30,243 nt of DNA from an uncultured Clostridia bacterium (GTDB taxonomy: Bacteria; Bacillota; Clostridia; Oscillospirales; Oscillospiraceae). The notes below the pieces were generated by a model. That model worked only from the letters and a program-made list of their open reading frames with translations. It was not told the origin of the DNA and searched no databases. Position numbers and translations under genes: made by a program. The stretch spans positions 1 to 30,243 of the forward strand of contig CAMHRJ010000001.1 of the NCBI GenBank assembly GCA_946187475.1. Reading direction: 5' to 3'. How positions within the stretch are numbered: position 1 is the first letter of the stretch; every line of letters begins with the position of its first letter. This document shows, piece by piece, positions 9,515-17,942 of the stretch.

Positions 9515-11080
9515 GTGGATTCCAAGGAAACCGTCGTCATGCTGGCAAAACCCAGGAAGAAAGGCCTGCTCCGGCTGGTGTTCAGCCGCTTTTTTGTGAT
9601 TGTGCTTCTGATCGTTCTGCAGCTGCTTCTGTTCGCGTCGGTCTATCTCTGGCTGCAGCAGTACATGCCCCACTATGTGGTCATCCAGGTCGTCTTCACC
9701 ATTCTGATGATCCTGTATCTGTTCAACAGCAGCATGGACTCCTCGGCCAAGCTCACCTGGATGATGCTGATTGCGGTGCTTCCCTTTATGGGCGCAGCGT
9801 TTCTGCTGTTCACCCAGATGAATTTCGGCCACCGGGCCATCCGGGACCGGGAGGAGGCCCTCATCGACCAGACGAAGCATCTGATTCCCCAGGACGAGAC
9901 CGTGCGCGCGGCCCTGGCGGGAGACATCTACGGCACCGACGATCTGCAGACCTATCTGAGCCGCAGCGGCTGCTTCCCGGTCTACGGCAACACCGAGGTG
10001 CGCTACTTCCCCCTGGGCGAGGAAAAATTCGCCGCCATGCTCCAGGAGCTGGAAAAGGCCCAGCAGTTCATCTTCTTCGAGTACTTCATCATCGAGGAGG
10101 GCTACATGTGGGGCCGCATCCTGGAGATTCTGAAGCGCAAGGCCGCCGCGGGCGTGGACGTGCGCGTCATGTATGACGGCATGTGCGAAATCTCCAACCT
10201 GCCGGCGGACTACCCCAAGCGGCTGGCCAAGGTGGGCATCCGGGCCAAGGCCTTCGCCCCGGTGCGCCCCTTCCTCTCCACCCACTACAACTATCGCGAC
10301 CACCGGAAGATTCTGGTCATCGACGGCAAGGTGGCCTTCAACGGCGGCGTAAATCTGGCGGATGAGTACATCAACCGCAAAAAGCGCTTCGGCCACTGGA
10401 AGGACACGGCAATCATGCTCCGGGGCGAGGCGGTGCAGAGCTTCACGCTGCTGTTCCTGCAGATGTGGAATCTCACGGAGCGGGAGGCGGACTTCACCCA
10501 GGCGAAGCTCCCTGCCCCCGCCGCAGAGGCGCCGGGCTTCGTCATGCCCTACGGCGACTGCCCCCTGGACAACGACAAGGTGGGCGAATCCGTCTACATC
10601 GACATGCTCTACCGCGCCAACACCTATGTCCACATCATGACGCCCTATCTGATCCTGGACGACGAGCTGCTGACGGCGCTGAAATACGCCGCCCAGCGGG
10701 GCACCGACGTGAAGCTGATCCTGCCGGGCATCCCGGACAAATCCACGGCCTACGCCCTGGCCAAATCCCACTATCGGGCTCTGACCGAGGCGGGGGTGCA
10801 GATTTACGAATACACACCGGGCTTCATCCACGCCAAAGTCTGCGTCAGCGACGACATCCGGGCCGTGGTGGGCACCATCAATCTGGACTACCGGAGCCTG
10901 TATCATCACTTCGAGTGCGCCACTTACCTCTACCGGGTGCCCTGCATCGCGGAGATCGCGGCGGACGTTGCCGCCACGCTGGCAAAGTGCCGGGCGGTCA
11001 CCCCGGAGAGCATCAAAGGCGAAAAGCTCTCCTACAGGCTCATGGGCTTTATCCTGAAGCTGGTGGCCCCGCTGATGTAA
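9515..11080 (+). CDS. cls: Cardiolipin synthase
   Basis: Two HKD motifs (DHRKILVIDG, IHAKVCVSDD), GGVNLADEY, WKDT, GTINLDYRS and N-terminal TM helices. GTG start with a GGAGG RBS. Confidence 0.93.
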   Translation: MDSKETVVMLAKPRKKGLLRLVFSRFFVIVLLIVLQLLLFASVYLWLQQYMPHYVVIQVVFTILMILYLFNSSMDSSAKLTWMMLIAVLPFMGAAFLLFTQMNFGHRAIRDREEALIDQTKHLIPQDETVRAALAGDIYGTDDLQTYLSRSGCFPVYGNTEVRYFPLGEEKFAAMLQELEKAQQFIFFEYFIIEEGYMWGRILEILKRKAAAGVDVRVMYDGMCEISNLPADYPKRLAKVGIRAKAFAPVRPFLSTHYNYRDHRKILVIDGKVAFNGGVNLADEYINRKKRFGHWKDTAIMLRGEAVQSFTLLFLQMWNLTEREADFTQAKLPAPAAEAPGFVMPYGDCPLDNDKVGESVYIDMLYRANTYVHIMTPYLILDDELLTALKYAAQRGTDVKLILPGIPDKSTAYALAKSHYRALTEAGVQIYEYTPGFIHAKVCVSDDIRAVVGTINLDYRSLYHHFECATYLYRVPCIAEIAADVAATLAKCRAVTPESIKGEKLSYRLMGFILKLVAPLM

Positions 11081-11090
11081 CACAACAAAA

Positions 11091-11123
11091 AAGAACGGCA
11101 CACCCGGTTGGGGTGTGCCGTTT
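11091..11123. repeat. Palindromic REP-like element / bidirectional terminator, copy 1
   Basis: AACGGCACACCC-ggttg-GGGTGTGCCGTT with A and T flanks. The arms are identical to the copy at 25538-25570, in inverted orientation. Confidence 0.8.
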
Positions 11124-11127
11124 CGTT

Positions 11128-11643
11128 TCAGTATTCGCCCTGCCAGCGGGGCGGTGCGGGGACGATCTCCCCGGTTTCGAGGCTTTTGGGCACGTCGATC
11201 AGGCGCTGGTTGGCGCTGCCCCGGAACATGAGCTCCAAACTCCGCTCCGAGAGCAGGAAGGGCCCGTCCACCAGCACATCCAGCAGTGACAGAAGCCGGC
11301 GCTGCGCCTCAGTTCCGGCATCGCGCAGATGCTCAAAGGTGTAGCCCGTGTAGCTTGCGATCTCATATCCCTCGGCCTTCAGCCGCTCCGCCAGCTCGCA
11401 AAAGCCCTCCGCCTGGGCAAAGGGTTCGCCGCCGGAGAAGGTCACGCCGCGGCAGAGGGGATTCTCCATGGCAATGCGCGCAAGGGTTTCGGTGTCCATG
11501 GGCGTTCCCTCGCCGAAGGCCCAGGTCTCCGGGTTCTGGCAGCCCTCGCAGTGATGGGGACAGCCCTGGGCAAAATACGCCGTGCGGATGCCGGGACCGT
11601 CGACGATGGAGTCCTCGGCAATCCCGGCCATTTGGATCATCAT
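11128..11643 (-). CDS. nrdG: Anaerobic ribonucleotide reductase activating enzyme (radical SAM)
   Basis: SIVDGPGIR, CxxxCxxC (CPHHCEGC), GVTFSGGEPF, DVLVDGPF and FRGSANQR, directly downstream of nrdD. Confidence 0.95.
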   Translation of the reverse strand: MMIQMAGIAEDSIVDGPGIRTAYFAQGCPHHCEGCQNPETWAFGEGTPMDTETLARIAMENPLCRGVTFSGGEPFAQAEGFCELAERLKAEGYEIASYTGYTFEHLRDAGTEAQRRLLSLLDVLVDGPFLLSERSLELMFRGSANQRLIDVPKSLETGEIVPAPPRWQGEY

Positions 11644-11646
11644 GGG

Positions 11647-11802
11647 TTACTTCGCGATGCTGTGCTTGACGCGGTCGCGCTCCTCGGCCTTCTTGGCGTC
11701 GTTCCACTTGTCCATGGTACCCACGAGATAGCCGGTGATGCGGCGGATGCGCTCGAAGCCGACGCCGGCGCCCATTTTGCTCTGCTTGGAATCTACGGTC
11801 AT
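11647..11802 (-). CDS. Stand-alone 51-aa glycyl-radical domain of class III RNR (detached NrdD C-terminus); not in the ORF track
   Basis: My translation is MTVDSKQSKMGAGVGFERIRRITGYLVGTMDKWNDAKKAEERDRVKHSIAK. It carries the NrdD RxxGYL glycyl-radical loop and the C-terminal ExxDRVKH motif. AGGAGG RBS at 11816-11811, ATG at 11802, TAA at 11649-11647. Confidence 0.9.
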   Translation of the reverse strand: MTVDSKQSKMGAGVGFERIRRITGYLVGTMDKWNDAKKAEERDRVKHSIAK

Positions 11803-11835
11803 AACTGGTTCCTCCTGTTTATCTTCGTTTTTTGT

Positions 11836-14115
11836 TTATTCGATACCGACAAATGCTTTGATCTGCGGGAATTTCTTGATGAGCTCCTGCATCCGCTCCT
11901 CGGAGACGGCCTCGCCTTCCTTGCGGCCGCAGCGGGGGCAGGTGTCGCCGATGACGCCCACATAGCCGCAGATGGGATCGCGGTCCACGGGATGGTTGAT
12001 GGAGCCGTAGCCGATGCCCTCATCGTGCATGCACCGGACGATCTGCTCAAAGGCCTCCACGTTCTTGGCGGTGTCGCCGTCCAGCTCCACATAGGAGATG
12101 TGGCCGGCGTTGCACAGGGCGTGGTAGGGCGCCTCGATGTGGATCTTCTCATAGGCGCTGATGGGATACCAGACCGGCACGTGGAAGGAGTTGGTGTAGT
12201 ACTCCCGGTCCGTCACGCCGGGGATCCTGCCATAGCGCTGGCGGTCCATGCGGGTGAAGCGGCCGGACAGGCCCTCCGCCGGGGTGGCCAGCAGGGTGAA
12301 GTTCATCTTCATGGCCTGGGACTTGTCATCGCAGAACTTGCGCATGCGGCCGATGATCTCCAGACCCTTTTCCTGCATGGCGGGGTCCTCCGCGTGGTTC
12401 TTGCCGTAGAGGGCGGTCAGGGTCTCCGCCAGGCCGATGAAGCCGATGGAGAGCGTTCCGTGCTTGAGCACCTCGCGCACCTCGTCATAGGGGCCCAGCT
12501 TGTCGGAATCCAGCCACACGCCCTGTCCCATGAGGAAGGGATAGTTGTAGACGCGCTTTTTCGCCTGGATCTCAAAGCGGTCCAGCAGCTGCTGCGCCAC
12601 CAGCTCCAGCATGTCATCCAGCATTTTCAGGAATCGCGCCTCGTCGCCCTTGGCCTCCAGCGCCAGACGCGGCAGGTTGATGGAGGTGAAGGACAGGTTG
12701 CCGCGGGAATAGGAGATCTCCTGCTCCGGGTCATAGACGTTGCCGAGCACGCGGGTGCGGCAGCCCATGGTGGCCACCTCCGTCTCCGGACGGCCGGGCA
12801 CATAGTACTTGAGGTTGTACGGGCTGTCCAGGAACACGTAGTTCGGGAACAGGCGCTTGGCGGAAACCTTGCAGCTCAGGCGGAACAGATCGTAGTTCGG
12901 GTCGCCTTCGTTGTAGTTCACGCCCTCTTTGACCTTAAAGATGTGGATCGGGAAGATGCAGGTCTCGCCGTGGCCCAGACCGGCGTCCAGCGCCAGCAGC
13001 ACGTTGCGGATGACCATGCGGCCCTCGGGCGTGGTATCGGTACCGTAGTTGATGGAGGAGAACGGCGTCTGCGCGCCGGCGCGGGAGTGCATGGTGTTCA
13101 GGTTGTGCACAAAGCCCTCCATGGCCTGATAGGTGTCGCGCTCGGTCTGATCCTCGGCCCGGCGGCGTGCCCGCGCAACCAGGTGCGCCGCAACGTCTGC
13201 CTCGATGCACAAACTATCATACAGATGCGAGGCGAGGGAAGCGTCGAAGCCCTCGGTGGGCTCCAGCGCATTGGGCCCGAAGGAGGCTTCCGTTTTCTCG
13301 ATGGCCTCTGCCACTGCATCGGCGAGATTGTCCTCGTCCAGATGATCCTCCACCACGTCCGTCAGCTTTTTGCGGAACTGGCTGCGGAAAGTCTTTCCCA
13401 CGCCCAGGGCCATGCCGTAGTCAAAGTTGGGGATGGACTGGCCGCCGTGCTGGTCGTTCTGGTTGGACTGGATCGCGATGGCGGCGAGGGCGGCGTAGCT
13501 CTGGATGGACTGGGGCTCGCGCAGGAAACCGTGGCCGGTGGAAAAGCCGTCTTTGAACAGGCGGATGATGTCGATCTGGGTGCAGGTGGTGGTGAGAGCA
13601 TAGAAATCGAAGTCATGGATGTGGATATCGCCCTCGCGCTGGGCTTTGGCGTGCTCCGGGCGGAGCAGATAGGCCTCGTTATAGGCCTTGGCGCCGGCAG
13701 CGCCGATCTGCAGCATGGCGCCCATGGCGGTATCACCGTCGATGTTGCCGTTTTCGCGCTTCAGGTCGGAGAGCTTCGCGTCCTTGCTGGCGATCTCATC
13801 GATGGTCTTCATCAGCGTGGTGCGGGACTCCCGCGCGCGGGTGCGGGTGGCGCGATAGATGATATAGGACTTGGCCGTGTTGGTGAACTCATGGTGCATG
13901 AGCTCCTGCTCCACCATGTCCTGAATGACCTCGATCTGGGGCGGCTCTGCGCCGCAGCGGCTTTCCAGCGCGCTCTCAACGGCTTCCGCCACACGGGCAG
14001 CGTCCGCCACCGTGCCTTCGCCCGAGGCCCGCATCGCCCGCAGCACCGCAAGGGCGATTTTCTCTCTGTCATAGGGGACGACGCGGCCGTCCCGCTTGAT
14101 AATCATCTGTATCAT
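11836..14115 (-). CDS. nrdD: Class III anaerobic ribonucleoside-triphosphate reductase, catalytic subunit lacking the glycyl-radical C-terminus
   Basis: N-terminal ATP cone (IIKRDGRVVPYDREKI), GDIHIHD, TTTCTQID, finger loop TMGCRT, ATPAEGL, YYTNSFHVP, GHISYVE and a Zn-ribbon-like DPIC...CPRC, ending AFVGIE-stop. Start moved from 14283 to ATG 14115 (GGAGA RBS). Confidence 0.95.
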   Translation of the reverse strand: MIQMIIKRDGRVVPYDREKIALAVLRAMRASGEGTVADAARVAEAVESALESRCGAEPPQIEVIQDMVEQELMHHEFTNTAKSYIIYRATRTRARESRTTLMKTIDEIASKDAKLSDLKRENGNIDGDTAMGAMLQIGAAGAKAYNEAYLLRPEHAKAQREGDIHIHDFDFYALTTTCTQIDIIRLFKDGFSTGHGFLREPQSIQSYAALAAIAIQSNQNDQHGGQSIPNFDYGMALGVGKTFRSQFRKKLTDVVEDHLDEDNLADAVAEAIEKTEASFGPNALEPTEGFDASLASHLYDSLCIEADVAAHLVARARRRAEDQTERDTYQAMEGFVHNLNTMHSRAGAQTPFSSINYGTDTTPEGRMVIRNVLLALDAGLGHGETCIFPIHIFKVKEGVNYNEGDPNYDLFRLSCKVSAKRLFPNYVFLDSPYNLKYYVPGRPETEVATMGCRTRVLGNVYDPEQEISYSRGNLSFTSINLPRLALEAKGDEARFLKMLDDMLELVAQQLLDRFEIQAKKRVYNYPFLMGQGVWLDSDKLGPYDEVREVLKHGTLSIGFIGLAETLTALYGKNHAEDPAMQEKGLEIIGRMRKFCDDKSQAMKMNFTLLATPAEGLSGRFTRMDRQRYGRIPGVTDREYYTNSFHVPVWYPISAYEKIHIEAPYHALCNAGHISYVELDGDTAKNVEAFEQIVRCMHDEGIGYGSINHPVDRDPICGYVGVIGDTCPRCGRKEGEAVSEERMQELIKKFPQIKAFVGIE

Positions 14116-14128
14116 GTCTGATTCTCCA

Positions 14129-14144
14129 TAACTATATATTGTGG
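14129..14144. promoter_or_regulatory. NrdR box 1
   Basis: Minus strand CCACAATATATAGTTA matches the NrdR consensus acaCwAtATaTwGtgt. It lies just upstream of the nrdD RBS. Confidence 0.8.
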
Positions 14145-14161
14145 TGTTTCTGGAAGGTTCG

Positions 14162-14177
14162 CAACTAAATATAGCAT
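14162..14177. promoter_or_regulatory. NrdR box 2
   Basis: CAACTAAATATAGCAT, one core mismatch. It is 33 bp from box 1 and overlaps the -10 element. Confidence 0.7.
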
Positions 14178-14196
14178 TATTATCGAAACGTGTCAA
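14168..14196 (-). promoter_or_regulatory. SigA promoter of the nrdD operon
   Basis: TTGACA (14196-14191), 17-nt spacer, TGn-TATATT (14173-14168). Confidence 0.8.
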
Positions 14197-14262
14197 GCCG
14201 TCCGGGCAAGAATCTTGCTGCCGTGAACCCGGTGTTCCGATGGGGAAATATGGCCGGATGCA

Positions 14263-14295
14263 AAAAACCTGTCCGCAATTCACGGACAGGTTTTT
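14263..14295 (-). terminator. Intrinsic terminator after the ABC exporter operon
   Basis: AAAAACCTGTCCG-caattca-CGGACAGGTTTTT, immediately downstream of the stop at 14302. Confidence 0.85.
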
Positions 14296-14301
14296 GGGGG
14301 G

Positions 14302-16113
14302 TTATCCCAGGGCGGACTTGGTGGCCTCGTCCTCATACTGCCGGGTGTAGAGCCGGTAGTAATAGCCGCGCTTGGCCATGAGCTCCTCGTGCCGGCCCTG
14401 CTCTACGATCTTGCCGTGGTGCACGGTGAGGATTACGTCCGCGTGCTGGACGGTGCTCAGCCGGTGGGCGATGACGATGCTGGTGCGGCCGCGGATGATC
14501 GTGTCGATGGCGGACTGGATTTTCTGCTCGGTGATGGTATCCACCGAGGCGGTGGCCTCGTCCAGCACCAGGATGCGCGGGTCGGCGAGGATGGCCCGGG
14601 CGAAGCTGATCAGCTGCTTTTCCCCGGTGGAGAGCAGGTCGCCGCCCTCCCCCACGTCGGTGTCCAGCCCATGCTCCAGCCGGTCGGCCACCTCCGTGGC
14701 GCTCACCAGCTCCAGAGCCCGGCGGATGTCCGCTTCCGATGCCTCGGGATTGCCGTAGAGCAGGTTCTCCCGCAGGGTGCCGGAGAAGAGATGGGGCGTC
14801 TGCAGCACATAGCCGATGGCGCTGTGGAGCCAGAGCTGGCTGCGCTCCCGGGCGTCGCGTCCGTCGATGAGCACCTGTCCCTCCGTGGGCTCATAGAACC
14901 GGCAGATCAGGTTGGCCAGAGTGGATTTTCCGGCGCCGGTCTCGCCCACGATGGCCACATTGGTGCCGAAGGGGATCTCCAGCGAGAAGTGCTCCAGCAC
15001 GGTCTCCTCCCCATCGGGATAGCGGAAGGTCACGTCCCGGAAGGAGATGTCGCCCCGAATCGGCTCCCAGTTTTCCCGTCTGGGCGTGAAGCAGTCGCCG
15101 TAGGCCTCCACCACCGCGGGGGAATCCTTCACGTCCGGCTCGGTCTCCAGCAGCTTCGTCAGCCGCTCGATGTTCACCTGGGTGGTGATCAGGTCGGAGA
15201 TGGCGTCCACCACCCAGCGAATGGGCTCCATGAGTCCCTGGGCATAGCTCATGAACATGGAGAAGGTGCCGATCTGGGTCTTGGCGATGTAGCCGCCCTT
15301 CCAGAGCACCACGGCCAGGGCCAGAGAGGAGGCGAAGTTCATGGTCACGGCGAAGAGGCCACGCAGTCTGGCGGCGCCGATGGCCCGCCGGCGAATGCGG
15401 GACGTGTCCGCGACGAAAGCGCGCTCCATGGTGTCCTCCACCACCAGGGTCTTGATGGTCCGGGCGCCGGTGATGCCCTCGTTGAAGTTGCCGGTGATCT
15501 GGGAGTTGATCTCGCGAATTTCCCGGTTGGCCCGGGTCAGTCCCCGCTGGAACAGGGAGAAGAGCAGCACCGTCAGGGGCAGTACCGCCATGACCAGCAG
15601 CGCCAGGCGGGCGTTGATCACCAGCATGACCACCACCGCGCCGACCACATAGCCCAGCTGCCAGAGGCTGTCCAGCAGCGTCCAGCTCACCAGGGCGCCG
15701 ATCTTCTGGGTGTCCGACATGACCCGGGCGTGGAGATAGCCCACGCTGTTCTGGTTGAAGTAGGAAAAAGACAGAGTCTGCAGGTGGTTGAAGGCGGCGT
15801 TGCGCAGGTCCTTGTCCACGCCCACCTCGATCTCCATGCTGAAGATGCAGGCAACGTAGTTCACCAGGGCGCCGCCGCAGATCAGCGCGAGGTAGAGGAT
15901 GACAAACAGGACAATGGTATCCAGGGTGCCGCCGCCGATGAAGTGGTTCAGGGCATAGCGCTGGAACAGCGGCACGCCGATGTCCACCAGCGAGCCCACG
16001 ACGCAGCCCAGGATCATGCCGAAGACGGCTTTTTTGTAGTGTTTCAGATAGGGCAGCAGCTTCCCGATGCCGAAAAACGGGAGGCGCACGGTGTCGGTGG
16101 TGTGCCGGTTCAT
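14302..16113 (-). CDS. ABC exporter, fused TMD-NBD half transporter, subunit 2
   Basis: Walker A GETGAGKST, degenerate signature LSTGEKQ, consensus Walker B ILVLDEAT and IAHR. Overlaps the stop of the partner gene. Confidence 0.93.
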   Translation of the reverse strand: MNRHTTDTVRLPFFGIGKLLPYLKHYKKAVFGMILGCVVGSLVDIGVPLFQRYALNHFIGGGTLDTIVLFVILYLALICGGALVNYVACIFSMEIEVGVDKDLRNAAFNHLQTLSFSYFNQNSVGYLHARVMSDTQKIGALVSWTLLDSLWQLGYVVGAVVVMLVINARLALLVMAVLPLTVLLFSLFQRGLTRANREIREINSQITGNFNEGITGARTIKTLVVEDTMERAFVADTSRIRRRAIGAARLRGLFAVTMNFASSLALAVVLWKGGYIAKTQIGTFSMFMSYAQGLMEPIRWVVDAISDLITTQVNIERLTKLLETEPDVKDSPAVVEAYGDCFTPRRENWEPIRGDISFRDVTFRYPDGEETVLEHFSLEIPFGTNVAIVGETGAGKSTLANLICRFYEPTEGQVLIDGRDARERSQLWLHSAIGYVLQTPHLFSGTLRENLLYGNPEASEADIRRALELVSATEVADRLEHGLDTDVGEGGDLLSTGEKQLISFARAILADPRILVLDEATASVDTITEQKIQSAIDTIIRGRTSIVIAHRLSTVQHADVILTVHHGKIVEQGRHEELMAKRGYYYRLYTRQYEDEATKSALG

Positions 16114-17942
16114 GCGCCCACCTCCCCCACAGAGCTGCTTTGAATCTCGCAGATCTTCTGGTAGACGCCGCCGGCCTTGGAGAGGGTCTCGTGGTTGCCG
16201 CGCTCGTTGATCTCGCCCCGGTCCAGCACCAGGATCTGGTCGGCCTTGGAGAGGGTGGTGATGCGGTGGGAGATCAGCAGAATGGTGGCGCTGCCAAAGC
16301 GGCGCTCCAGCTCCGCGCGGATTTTGGCGTCGGTCTCCGTGTCAACGGCGGAGAGAGAATCGTCAAAAATCAGGATGGGCGTGTGCTCCGTCAGCGCCCG
16401 GGCGATGGCCGCGCGCTGCTTCTGTCCGCCGGAGAGGGTCACGCCCCGCTCGCCCACGAAGGTGTCATATCCCTTTGCAAAGCCCATGACCGTCTCGTCC
16501 AGACAGGCGGCCCGCGCCGCCTCCCGCACGGCTTCCAGCGTCATGGCTTCGTCCGTGATGGCGATGTTTTCCCGGATGGTCCGGCTGAAGAGATAGGGCT
16601 CCTGCAGCACCATGCCGATGTTCCGGCGCAGGTGGCCGGTCTCGATGTCCTTCAAGTCCACACCGCCGATGGTGATGCGCCCGCAGCCCTCCGGGAGGTC
16701 GTAGAGCTTGTCCAGCAGGAGCATAAGGGTACTTTTGCCGCTGCCCGTGCCGCCGAGGATGCCCAGGGTAGTGCCCGCCGACACCGTGAAGCTCACGTGC
16801 TTCAGCACCTCACGGCGCCCTTCGGCATAGCGGAAGGAGACGTTTTCAAAGACGATGTCCTGATCCATCGCCGGCCGGAGGCTGCGCCCGGTCTCCCGCT
16901 CCTCCTCTGCCTCCATGATGTAGGCGATGCGGTCCATGCTCACGCCGGCCTTGCTCATCTCGGCGATCATGCGGCCCAGCATGCGCACGGGCCAGGTCAT
17001 GATGGCGCCGTAGGAGAGAAAGGCGATGTATTCGCCGGCGGTCATCTCGCCCCGGAGGCAGAGCACCGACCCGAAAACCACGATCAGCATGATCTGCAGC
17101 CCGGAGAGTACGTCGCTGAGGCTCCAGAACTGGGCCAGCGGGCGGGCCAGCTTCATCCAGAGTCCGGTATAGTATTCATTCTGCGCCTCGAAGCGCTCCC
17201 GCTCCCGCCGCTCCTGGCCGAAGGAGCGCACCACCCGCACACCGGTGAGATTTTCCTGGGCGATGTCCGAGAGCTTCCCCTCGTTTTCGTCACAGTCCAG
17301 AAAGGCCTTGCCGATCTTCCCGTGGAAGTGCACCGACCGGAGGATGATATAGGGTACCGGCAGCATGGCGATGATCGTGAGCTTCCAGTTCATGCTGAGC
17401 ATGAACCCAAGACTCAGCGCCAGCAGCACCACGATGCGGAAAATGCTGGTCATCTGCTCGGACACGAAGCTTTTGAGGGTTTCGATGTCGCTGGTGCAGC
17501 GCTGGATGATGTCCCCGGTGCGGTGCTGGCTGTGCCAGGCGTAGGGCAGGCGCTCGATGTGGCGGAAAAGCTCGTCCCGCATGGTTTTCGTGAGGGTCTC
17601 GGCGCCCCGGGTGTTGCACACGCGGAAGCTGTATTGGGCAGCCACCTTCACGGCGGCCACCACGAGGATTGCTGCCGCCATGATCCAGATGTGCTCGCCC
17701 AGATAGGCCCAGCCTCCGGCCCGCTGGGCCAGCGCCATGGCGAAGGCCGGGAGATCGGCCGCCTTCCCGCCCAGGGCGTTGTCCACCGCAGCCCGGACGA
17801 TCTGGGGACTCACCATGTCCGCCAGAGCGGTCACGGCGGCGGAGACCATGCTGATCAGGAACCAGCCCTTGCTCCCCCGGAGAAACCGCCAGAGCAGGGC
17901 CCGTTCCCGGGCTTTTTCGGTTGTCGTCTTTTTGGGATTCAT
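16110..17942 (-). CDS. ABC exporter, fused TMD-NBD half transporter, subunit 1
   Basis: Walker A GGTGSGKST, consensus signature LSGGQKQR, degenerate Walker B ILIFDDSL and ISHR. N-terminal TMD with GDIIQRCTSDI. Confidence 0.93.
   Translation of the reverse strand: MNPKKTTTEKARERALLWRFLRGSKGWFLISMVSAAVTALADMVSPQIVRAAVDNALGGKAADLPAFAMALAQRAGGWAYLGEHIWIMAAAILVVAAVKVAAQYSFRVCNTRGAETLTKTMRDELFRHIERLPYAWHSQHRTGDIIQRCTSDIETLKSFVSEQMTSIFRIVVLLALSLGFMLSMNWKLTIIAMLPVPYIILRSVHFHGKIGKAFLDCDENEGKLSDIAQENLTGVRVVRSFGQERRERERFEAQNEYYTGLWMKLARPLAQFWSLSDVLSGLQIMLIVVFGSVLCLRGEMTAGEYIAFLSYGAIMTWPVRMLGRMIAEMSKAGVSMDRIAYIMEAEEERETGRSLRPAMDQDIVFENVSFRYAEGRREVLKHVSFTVSAGTTLGILGGTGSGKSTLMLLLDKLYDLPEGCGRITIGGVDLKDIETGHLRRNIGMVLQEPYLFSRTIRENIAITDEAMTLEAVREAARAACLDETVMGFAKGYDTFVGERGVTLSGGQKQRAAIARALTEHTPILIFDDSLSAVDTETDAKIRAELERRFGSATILLISHRITTLSKADQILVLDRGEINERGNHETLSKAGGVYQKICEIQSSSVGEVGA

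Follow-up and report, generated by a model that had tools for sequence, protein, structure and literature searches.

Class III ribonucleotide reductase genes of gut Clostridia with a separately encoded glycyl-radical loop

To our knowledge, the class III ribonucleotide reductases (RNRs) that have been studied biochemically all carry the radical glycine on the chain that holds the active site. The locus described here raises the question of whether such an enzyme can be divided between two genes. It lies in a 30,243-nucleotide stretch of DNA (the window) from an uncultured Clostridia bacterium of the family Oscillospiraceae (GenBank assembly GCA_946187475.1, contig CAMHRJ010000001.1, positions 1 to 30,243 of the forward strand). 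A first-pass annotation of this stretch had proposed that the glycyl-radical loop of the reductase NrdD forms a gene of its own between nrdD and the activase gene nrdG, and that nrdD itself stops at 11836 without a loop. Both the layout, with its 33-nucleotide gap, AGGAGG sequence and 51-codon open reading frame (ORF), and the separateness of the small gene, which has its own Shine-Dalgarno sequence and ATG and stands in mixed frames in relatives, were confirmed. The whole locus is on the minus strand, in the order nrdD, small ORF, nrdG, and consists of the following parts:

14115 (ATG) to 11836, minus strand: nrdD body, 759 residues, stop codon TAA at 11838-11836, C-terminus ...CPRCGRKEGEAVSEERMQELIKKFPQIKAFVGIE

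11835 to 11803, minus strand: spacer of 33 nucleotides between nrdD and the peptide ORF, with an AGGAGG Shine-Dalgarno sequence at 11816-11811, 8 nucleotides before the ATG at 11802

11802 to 11647, minus strand: glycyl-radical peptide ORF, 51 residues, loop RRITG24YL, Gly24 codon at 11733-11731

11643 to 11128, minus strand: nrdG activase, 171 residues, a radical S-adenosylmethionine (SAM) protein with the cluster motif CPHHCEGC and Pfam matches to Fer4_12 and Radical_SAM

The full product of the 51-codon ORF reads MTVDSKQSKMGAGVGFERIRRITGYLVGTMDKWNDAKKAEERDRVKHSIAK. The nrdD TAA falls just ahead of where the glycyl-radical loop would begin, and the small ORF is here in frame with nrdD, 36 nucleotides from stop to start, without a further stop. 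Since nrdG starts only 3 nucleotides past the peptide stop, the peptide and nrdG are probably translationally coupled. The gap between the preceding stop and nrdG is -8 to +3 nucleotides in most relatives, split and fused alike, so that in the split form the coupled pair is the peptide and the activase.

Two genes that together make up one NrdD

Profile searches located the break in the chain. The NrdD body matched Pfam NRDD over positions 1-531 of 562 (E = 4.5e-180), NF005497 over positions 1-713 of 746 (1051.9 bits, cut-off 764) and TIGR02487 (555 bits, cut-off 326), and it begins with a recognisable ATP-cone domain (E = 7.5e-23). The peptide matched NRDD at positions 533-562 (E = 1.3e-8, above the cut-off), NF005497 at positions 711-744 (E = 2.7e-12) and NF011292 (E = 6.4e-15). 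NRDD was its only match in the Pfam search, in which Gly_radical (PF01228) was unmatched, and the NCBIfam profile search returned no model specific to the peptide. The body retains the catalytic cysteine of the finger loop (Cys452, within ATMGCRTRV) and the zinc-ribbon cluster (NHPVDRDPIC716...C726PRC729), the latter in the pattern of fused relatives of the subfamily. The RxxGY motif is not on this chain; it occurs as RRITG24YL on the separate 51-residue product, and the body ends one profile position earlier. The NrdG encoded alongside has the expected CxxxCxxC motif and matched TIGR02491 (136.5 bits, cut-off 126.1). Body and peptide thus tile one canonical NrdD without loss, the chain being cut between the zinc ribbon and the glycyl-radical loop. 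As the placement of the glycyl motif on a separate product is the one deviation from the class, we file the enzyme as a variant rather than as a standard class III member. Because the body has no loop of its own, the split enzyme can work only as two pieces.

The closest solved structure, 8P23 (Prevotella copri NrdD), gave the same picture. Body residues 315-732 correspond to its residues 279-705, and peptide residues 16-47 (FERIRRITG24YLVG...RVKH), which comprise the radical loop and the C-terminal helix, align to residues 707-738 of 743. What remains is a variable N-terminal extension of the peptide (residues 1-15) and an extra C-terminal tail of 25 residues on the body. We also modelled the complex of the peptide with body residues 100-759, which had been suggested at the outset. 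The model passed, with an ipSAE of 0.85 compared to 0.47 for the best control; 51 of 78 solved complexes attain this mark, as do 2 of 108 mismatched pairs. Three runs agreed in at least 90% of contacts, the partner pLDDT was 77, and there were about 160 interface contacts, in which peptide residues 8-51 face body residues 451-453 (including Cys452), 612-657, 673-679 and 705-742 (the zinc ribbon and the start of the tail). The predicted position of the peptide is where the covalent loop sits, against Cys452, which shows a likeness to single-chain NrdD rather than binding.

De novo synthesis of deoxyribonucleoside triphosphates (dNTPs) requires an RNR. Three other genomes yielded the split enzyme and no further RNR: G292 and G103, each a single contig and 99% complete, and G027, which is 98% complete. 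Searches of these genomes with RNR family profiles returned one body ending at profile position 531-533 together with a companion small ORF, while the large subunit of class I/II (PF02867), the monomeric class II enzyme (TIGR02505) and a further NrdD were all without a match. The two-piece enzyme must therefore function there. In searches that were not seeded with the peptide, a loop-less body (ending at about 531) was accompanied by a match to positions 533-562 in 8 of 8 genomes.

Purifying selection acts on the peptide, whose core (32 codons) had a pN/pS of 0.126 over 83 loci, and counts of synonymous and non-synonymous differences from the window peptide were 9/0 for L050, 6/0 for L070, and 5/0 and 4/0 for the sister species. 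A peptide match was present in 159 of the 401 genomes sampled from the order. Among the best 150 of these matches, 75 lay in open frames of 51-160 residues and 75 in longer frames, 70 of which, at 770 residues or more, were fused NrdDs. The order nrdD-peptide-nrdG was found in Faecousia and other Oscillospiraceae, in Lachnospiraceae and in Acutalibacter. It also occurs in the cultured Allofournierella massiliensis DSM 100451, in Scatolibacter rhodanostii and Clostridium sp. CAG:417, and in bins that carry the unverified labels Muribaculaceae, Bacteroides, Treponemataceae, Spirochaetaceae and Mailhella. The succession of nrdD stop, ribosome-binding site and small ORF, which together with nrdG had been marked earlier as a point to check across species, was found in the sister species and at about 20 further loci. 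We have high confidence that the two-gene class III RNR architecture is real and conserved.

A search of 5.8 billion protein clusters yielded 7339 small homologues at E <= 0.001, with candidate lengths of 28-89 residues. Among the matches listed most were 51-53 residues long, and some were on contigs of more than 100 kb. In public data they go by 'hypothetical protein' or by 'anaerobic ribonucleoside-triphosphate reductase', and one 48-residue MULTISPECIES entry occurs on at least 1000 contigs. The first-pass annotation had expected so small a gene to be easily missed in annotation; this did not hold in general, as the 7339 homologues are already called as genes in public data.

Contigs assembled from metatranscriptome libraries, the libraries coming from four studies of ruminants or of the gut, accumulate on the conserved peptide core within 11655-11765, and their sequences part from the window at 11757-11765. 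In these communities, transcripts that encode related peptides of other species are probably common.

Proposed operation and competing explanations

Collectively, these results make it very probable that the locus encodes a working class III RNR built of two polypeptides, with the radical glycine on the 51-residue subunit. The operon would yield the 759-residue body, the peptide from its own strong ribosome-binding site, and NrdG. The peptide is the exact counterpart of the C-terminal ~35 residues in a single-chain NrdD. NrdG would abstract a hydrogen from its Gly24, whether the peptide is docked at that moment or still free, and the peptide would insert in the barrel, placing the glycyl radical next to Cys452, after which turnover would proceed as in single-chain NrdD. 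The conserved 25-residue tail of the body and the 15-residue N-terminal extension of the peptide probably supply a binding surface that replaces the covalent link. Installation of the radical on the peptide, docking and activity are steps that we infer from this arrangement.

Several points weigh against a functional two-piece enzyme in this organism. The peptide product and a radical on it are predictions from sequence and model, and the good score of the complex may reflect model memory, since single-chain NrdD structures have been solved. Contigs from RNA libraries match at 95% identity or more over nrdG, the conserved peptide core and the 3' end of nrdD. Among these assembled contigs none crosses the species-specific segment 11766-11835, and the coverage elsewhere may come from DNA carry-over or from relatives. 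The window genome is only 80% complete, with 3.3% contamination, and within it a profile search found no class I or II RNR. It does contain, on contig C16 (positions 15139-16818), a conventional fused nrdD of a different subfamily with an adjoining nrdG, cut by the contig end. This fused NrdD could supply all dNTPs, so that activity of the split copy is not required in the window genome, and the split operon is here a second, accessory class III RNR.

The fused NrdD on C16 is the copy common to the rest of the genus. An NrdD match was present in 17 of 17 relatives sampled at 90% completeness or more, with full-length fused copies in the genus, and within the genus sample the split operon was found only in the window species and two sister species (G004 and G005), at about 90% DNA identity. 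The first-pass annotation had inferred an obligate two-piece RNR. This stands for the operon, whose body has no loop of its own, but not for the organism, which has the fused enzyme as well. It had also named fused NrdDs in all close relatives as a finding that would speak against the split; genus relatives do carry fused NrdDs, yet G004 and G005 also have the split form.

The alternative that survives best accepts the two-piece enzyme and competes only with the version in which the peptide is a permanent subunit. It holds that the peptide is a diffusible, exchangeable part, charged by NrdG off the enzyme and swapped after oxygen cleaves it at Gly24, with the body being re-used. We consider this a serious possibility, if a somewhat doubtful one. 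The radical glycine is the site at which oxygen cleaves glycyl-radical enzymes, and pyruvate formate-lyase (PFL) that has been cut there is rescued by YfiD/GrcA; by this precedent it is plausible that oxygen would destroy only the cheap peptide (PMC8683613, PMC13450708). Unlinked stand-alone proteins of ~90-105 residues with a near-identical loop occur in genomes that have a fused NrdD, which suggests that the loop can act in trans on NrdD, and some loci have two tandem peptide genes. On the other side, the conserved tail, the N-terminal extension and the roughly 160 modelled contacts fit a tight, permanent subunit equally well, gene fissions can become fixed neutrally, and the bacteria with the split form live as strict anaerobes in the gut. 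Neutral fission that fixed a permanent, tightly bound subunit accounts for the data as well as a benefit from replacement does. Tentatively, the glycyl segment may be a detachable, exchangeable module in a large group of gut anaerobes, and the ~90-105-residue relatives may serve single-chain NrdDs likewise.

These stand-alone NrdD-loop proteins (L024, L042, L044-L049, L079, L103, L110, L113-L116, L126 and L128) share a near-identical core with the peptide (PFERIRRITGYLVGT.D.WNDAK.AEE.DRVKH; loop PFERIRRITGYLVG...RVKH). Instead of its short extension they have an N-terminal domain of about 50 residues (...EI.AY....LDG[DE][FY].[DN]L.Y...). Their genes are monocistronic and lie in varied contexts, near a sigma factor, glutamine synthetase or transporters, and no nrdD or nrdG was found within 1.5-6 kb of them, the distance depending on the locus. 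Genomes that encode them often also have a fused NrdD. No such protein was found in the window genome, and our search returned no published name for the family. We regard its members as candidate true spare parts for NrdD.

It is very unlikely that the peptide serves the other, fused NrdD or another glycyl-radical enzyme, the loop-less body being non-catalytic or otherwise employed. A fused NrdD does co-exist in the window genome, and stand-alone loop proteins occur elsewhere in the order. However, the loop of the C16 NrdD (RRTCGYIGTQFWNQGR...RVLHL) differs strongly from the peptide. The peptide's match is to the loop of NF005497/NF011292, the subfamily to which the body belongs, and it tiles the body exactly. 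The body retains Cys452, the zinc ribbon and a full-score profile match, body and peptide occurred together in all eight genomes retrieved by a query that lacked the peptide, and G292, G103 and G027 have no other NrdD for the peptide to serve.

Readthrough or recoding of the in-frame TAA, with a fused NrdD of 822 residues as the true product, is just as improbable. The ORFs of the window genome and of G004 are in frame without a second stop, as this explanation needs, but the spacer of the sister species G005 holds two in-frame stops. Other genera and families in the order supplied the ~20 nrdD-linked loci, across which the relative frames 0/1/2 are distributed 8/8/4, spacers measure 13-122 nucleotides and TAA, TAG and TGA are all used as the body stop. 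Each small ORF at these loci starts with ATG (TTG once) behind a GGAG/AGGA/GGAA-type site; the strong Shine-Dalgarno sequences and ATG codons ahead of the small ORFs argue for independent initiation. An Rfam search found no element in the region, including the spacer. TAA is an efficient bacterial terminator. We also rejected an origin of the split by one nonsense change with possible readthrough, given the differing frames of the relatives' ORFs and the two spacer stops of G005.

That the stop is an error of sequencing, or a nonsense mutation recently acquired by a second nrdD in decay, can practically be dismissed. The loss of one copy would be tolerable with an intact other NrdD in the genome, and the source is a fragmented metagenome-assembled genome of 309 contigs. 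Against this, contigs that other studies obtained from other animals carry this stop and spacer too. One bovine-gut contig spans 11585-11961 with 2 differences and one goat-gut contig spans 11732-12075, also with 2 differences, none in either being listed at 11803-11838; the TAA at 11836-11838, singled out earlier for confirmation, is therefore seen independently. The split is moreover conserved from family to family and in bins with different phylum labels, purifying selection acts on body and peptide alike, and in some complete genomes the split enzyme is the sole RNR found. Split-intein 'fractured genes' are reportedly known from metagenomes (PMC2677866), but a re-joining of the pieces by protein trans-splicing, with tail and N-terminal extension as a split intein, is no more credible: at 25 and 15 residues these are far below the size of intein halves, they differ in length and sequence among clades (with two tail types), and the Pfam search found no intein domain at the locus. 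The independent contigs, double stops, mixed frames and missing intein domain led us to reject error, readthrough and trans-splicing.

Known counterparts and significance

Apart from its division, the enzyme resembles single-chain class III NrdD/NrdG systems (8P23; also 9D3X and phage T4 1H78). It has the same ATP-cone, barrel, finger-loop cysteine and zinc ribbon, the same RxxGY loop followed by ...RVKH, a radical-SAM NrdG directly downstream and a promoter that looks NrdR-controlled. In contrast to these systems, the split chain is interrupted between the zinc ribbon and the glycyl loop, and the body gains a conserved tail of 25 residues (about 45 in other clades). The loop segment gains a start codon, a Shine-Dalgarno site and an N-terminal extension of ~15 residues, and becomes a separate product.

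The comparison with GrcA/YfiD that the first-pass annotation had drawn is apt as an analogy, both being small stand-alone carriers of a glycyl-radical segment. GrcA/YfiD of E. coli and Y06I of phage T4 are such segments for PFL; like the peptide, they are presumably charged by the activase and act in trans. GrcA is homologous to the Gly_radical/PFL C-terminus, whereas the peptide is homologous to NRDD, and GrcA is a protein of 127 residues encoded away from pflB that backs up a PFL having its own loop. The NrdD next to the peptide has no loop, so the peptide would be an obligatory subunit and not a spare; the role of GrcA as a replacement for the parent's loop would have no equivalent here.

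A second counterpart is the split class II RNR NrdJa/NrdJb of Pseudomonas aeruginosa, as reported second-hand from Crona et al. 2015 (via PMC9669993). According to that account, its catalytic chain is spread over two adjacent genes, and an extra C-terminal element of the large piece is thought to hold the small piece. NrdJa/NrdJb differs in belonging to another RNR class, in using adenosylcobalamin as radical source and in the place of the break. NrdJb is a folded domain with a cysteine pair for re-reduction, not a radical carrier.

In all solved class III RNR structures that we found, the radical glycine and the active site are on one chain. There is still debate over the way in which the buried glycyl-radical domain gets out of the barrel and reaches the activase. 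A free segment of 51 residues makes three steps testable, namely the charging of the loop by NrdG off the enzyme, the insertion of the charged loop, and the replacement of a loop cleaved by oxygen. If the segment is indeed an exchangeable module, repair by spare parts would, as a strategy, extend to glycyl-radical enzymes in general rather than being peculiar to PFL, and nature would have provided in the peptide a minimal substrate for NrdG. Oscillospiraceae, Lachnospiraceae and their relatives in rumen and gut commonly have the layout, which is sometimes the sole RNR found, so that it bears on how strict anaerobes make DNA precursors and survive brief oxygen exposure. For annotation, it means that loop-less NrdD genes should not be labelled pseudogenes. 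Cultured carriers are at hand in Allofournierella massiliensis DSM 100451 and Scatolibacter rhodanostii.

Our search of the full-text literature, which covered papers outside subscription-only access, found no description of a split class III RNR. A survey of RNR insertions and extensions covers the split class II NrdJa/NrdJb and treats the class III glycyl-radical domain as C-terminal (PMC9669993). A June 2026 review names formate lyases as the only glycyl-radical enzymes with known spare-part proteins (PMC13450708), and a 2021 paper speculates that further such proteins exist (PMC8683613).

Operon control, ancestry and variant loci

One promoter and one terminator enclose the nrdD-peptide-nrdG operon, and two NrdR-box-like cores accompany the promoter:

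14168 to 14196, minus strand: sigma-70-type promoter upstream of nrdD, TTGACA-17-TATATT with a TG extension, agreeing with the consensus at 11 of 12 positions, with no better site in 11000-14320

14165 to 14174: NrdR-box-like palindromic core 1, CTAAATATAG, over the -10 element

14132 to 14141: NrdR-box-like palindromic core 2, CTATATATTG, 33 bp from core 1

11094 to 11122, minus strand: intrinsic terminator, a 12-bp stem followed by a T run, which closes the operon

The two cores are the sole NrdR-box-core matches in the window, and a 16-mer of the NrdR box was matched at 14129-14144 with 3 mismatches (0.05 expected by chance). The genome has an nrdR gene, matching TIGR00244 at positions 1-86 (121.8 bits) and cut by a contig end. 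Judged by these sites, the promoter looks NrdR-controlled.

A quick, unrooted maximum-likelihood tree was built from the last 430 residues of 97 NrdD bodies, with the loop excluded. The window NrdD lies inside an all-split clade of 29 rows (SH-aLRT 97). The split or fused state requires 5 changes on this tree, of which starred branches force at least 3, compared to a mean of 22.6 after shuffling. A single clean split clade was rejected: split and fused forms are strongly clustered but do not make two clean clades. Because the tree is unrooted and its sequences were collected by a search with the split peptide, which biased the sample toward split forms, we claim neither the number nor the direction of changes. 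G004 and G005 keep the 10-kb neighbourhood in colinear order at ~90% identity, and in G001, G003 and G006 it is missing or rearranged. A mobile cassette was considered and set aside, as the synteny pattern in G001 and G003-G006 fits gain and loss alike.

Split bodies end in two types of tail. Type 1, that of the window, has about 25 residues (...E.L.ELRKKYP.MP.F.G.E), and type 2 about 45 (...LG.YKNYNS.TIGYHGD..EEADRQPN...). Fused relatives have CPxCGR, then 7-10 residues and then directly FERIRRITGYLVG. Type-2 tails (L009, L021, L035, L036, L038, L039 and L041) contain T-[IL]-G-Y-[HY]-G-D followed by EEADR or a near variant. This motif is faintly like the loop, ITGYLVG...EERDR, with a different spacing, and could be a decayed duplicate of the loop or a chance likeness. 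Many split bodies or peptides end in cysteine pairs (…CGCE, …CGCDGR, …DCCR, …ACCSLEEEHTA and …SSCCG, at L019, L026, L034, L035, L036, L038, L040, L041, L071 and L111), which recall the C-terminal redox pairs of class I and II enzymes. The window tail (FVGIE) and the window peptide end without such a pair.

Some loci hold more than one small match. L020 (G217:C7) and L084 have tandem paralogous glycyl-loop ORFs of 44 and ~48 residues between nrdD and nrdG, about 470 nucleotides apart. G057 and G083 have a second small match about 3 kb from the first, on the opposite strand in G057. Against phage records, the peptide query matched mostly fused nrdD genes of C. difficile phages. Eggerthella phage EL753P1 (L131, OP172808.1 6611-7170) has a 952-residue nrdD followed by two small 'hypothetical' ORFs. 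Its match to the glycyl loop is broken into two parts that straddle the end of the second small ORF, possibly reflecting a split or frameshifted phage loop gene.

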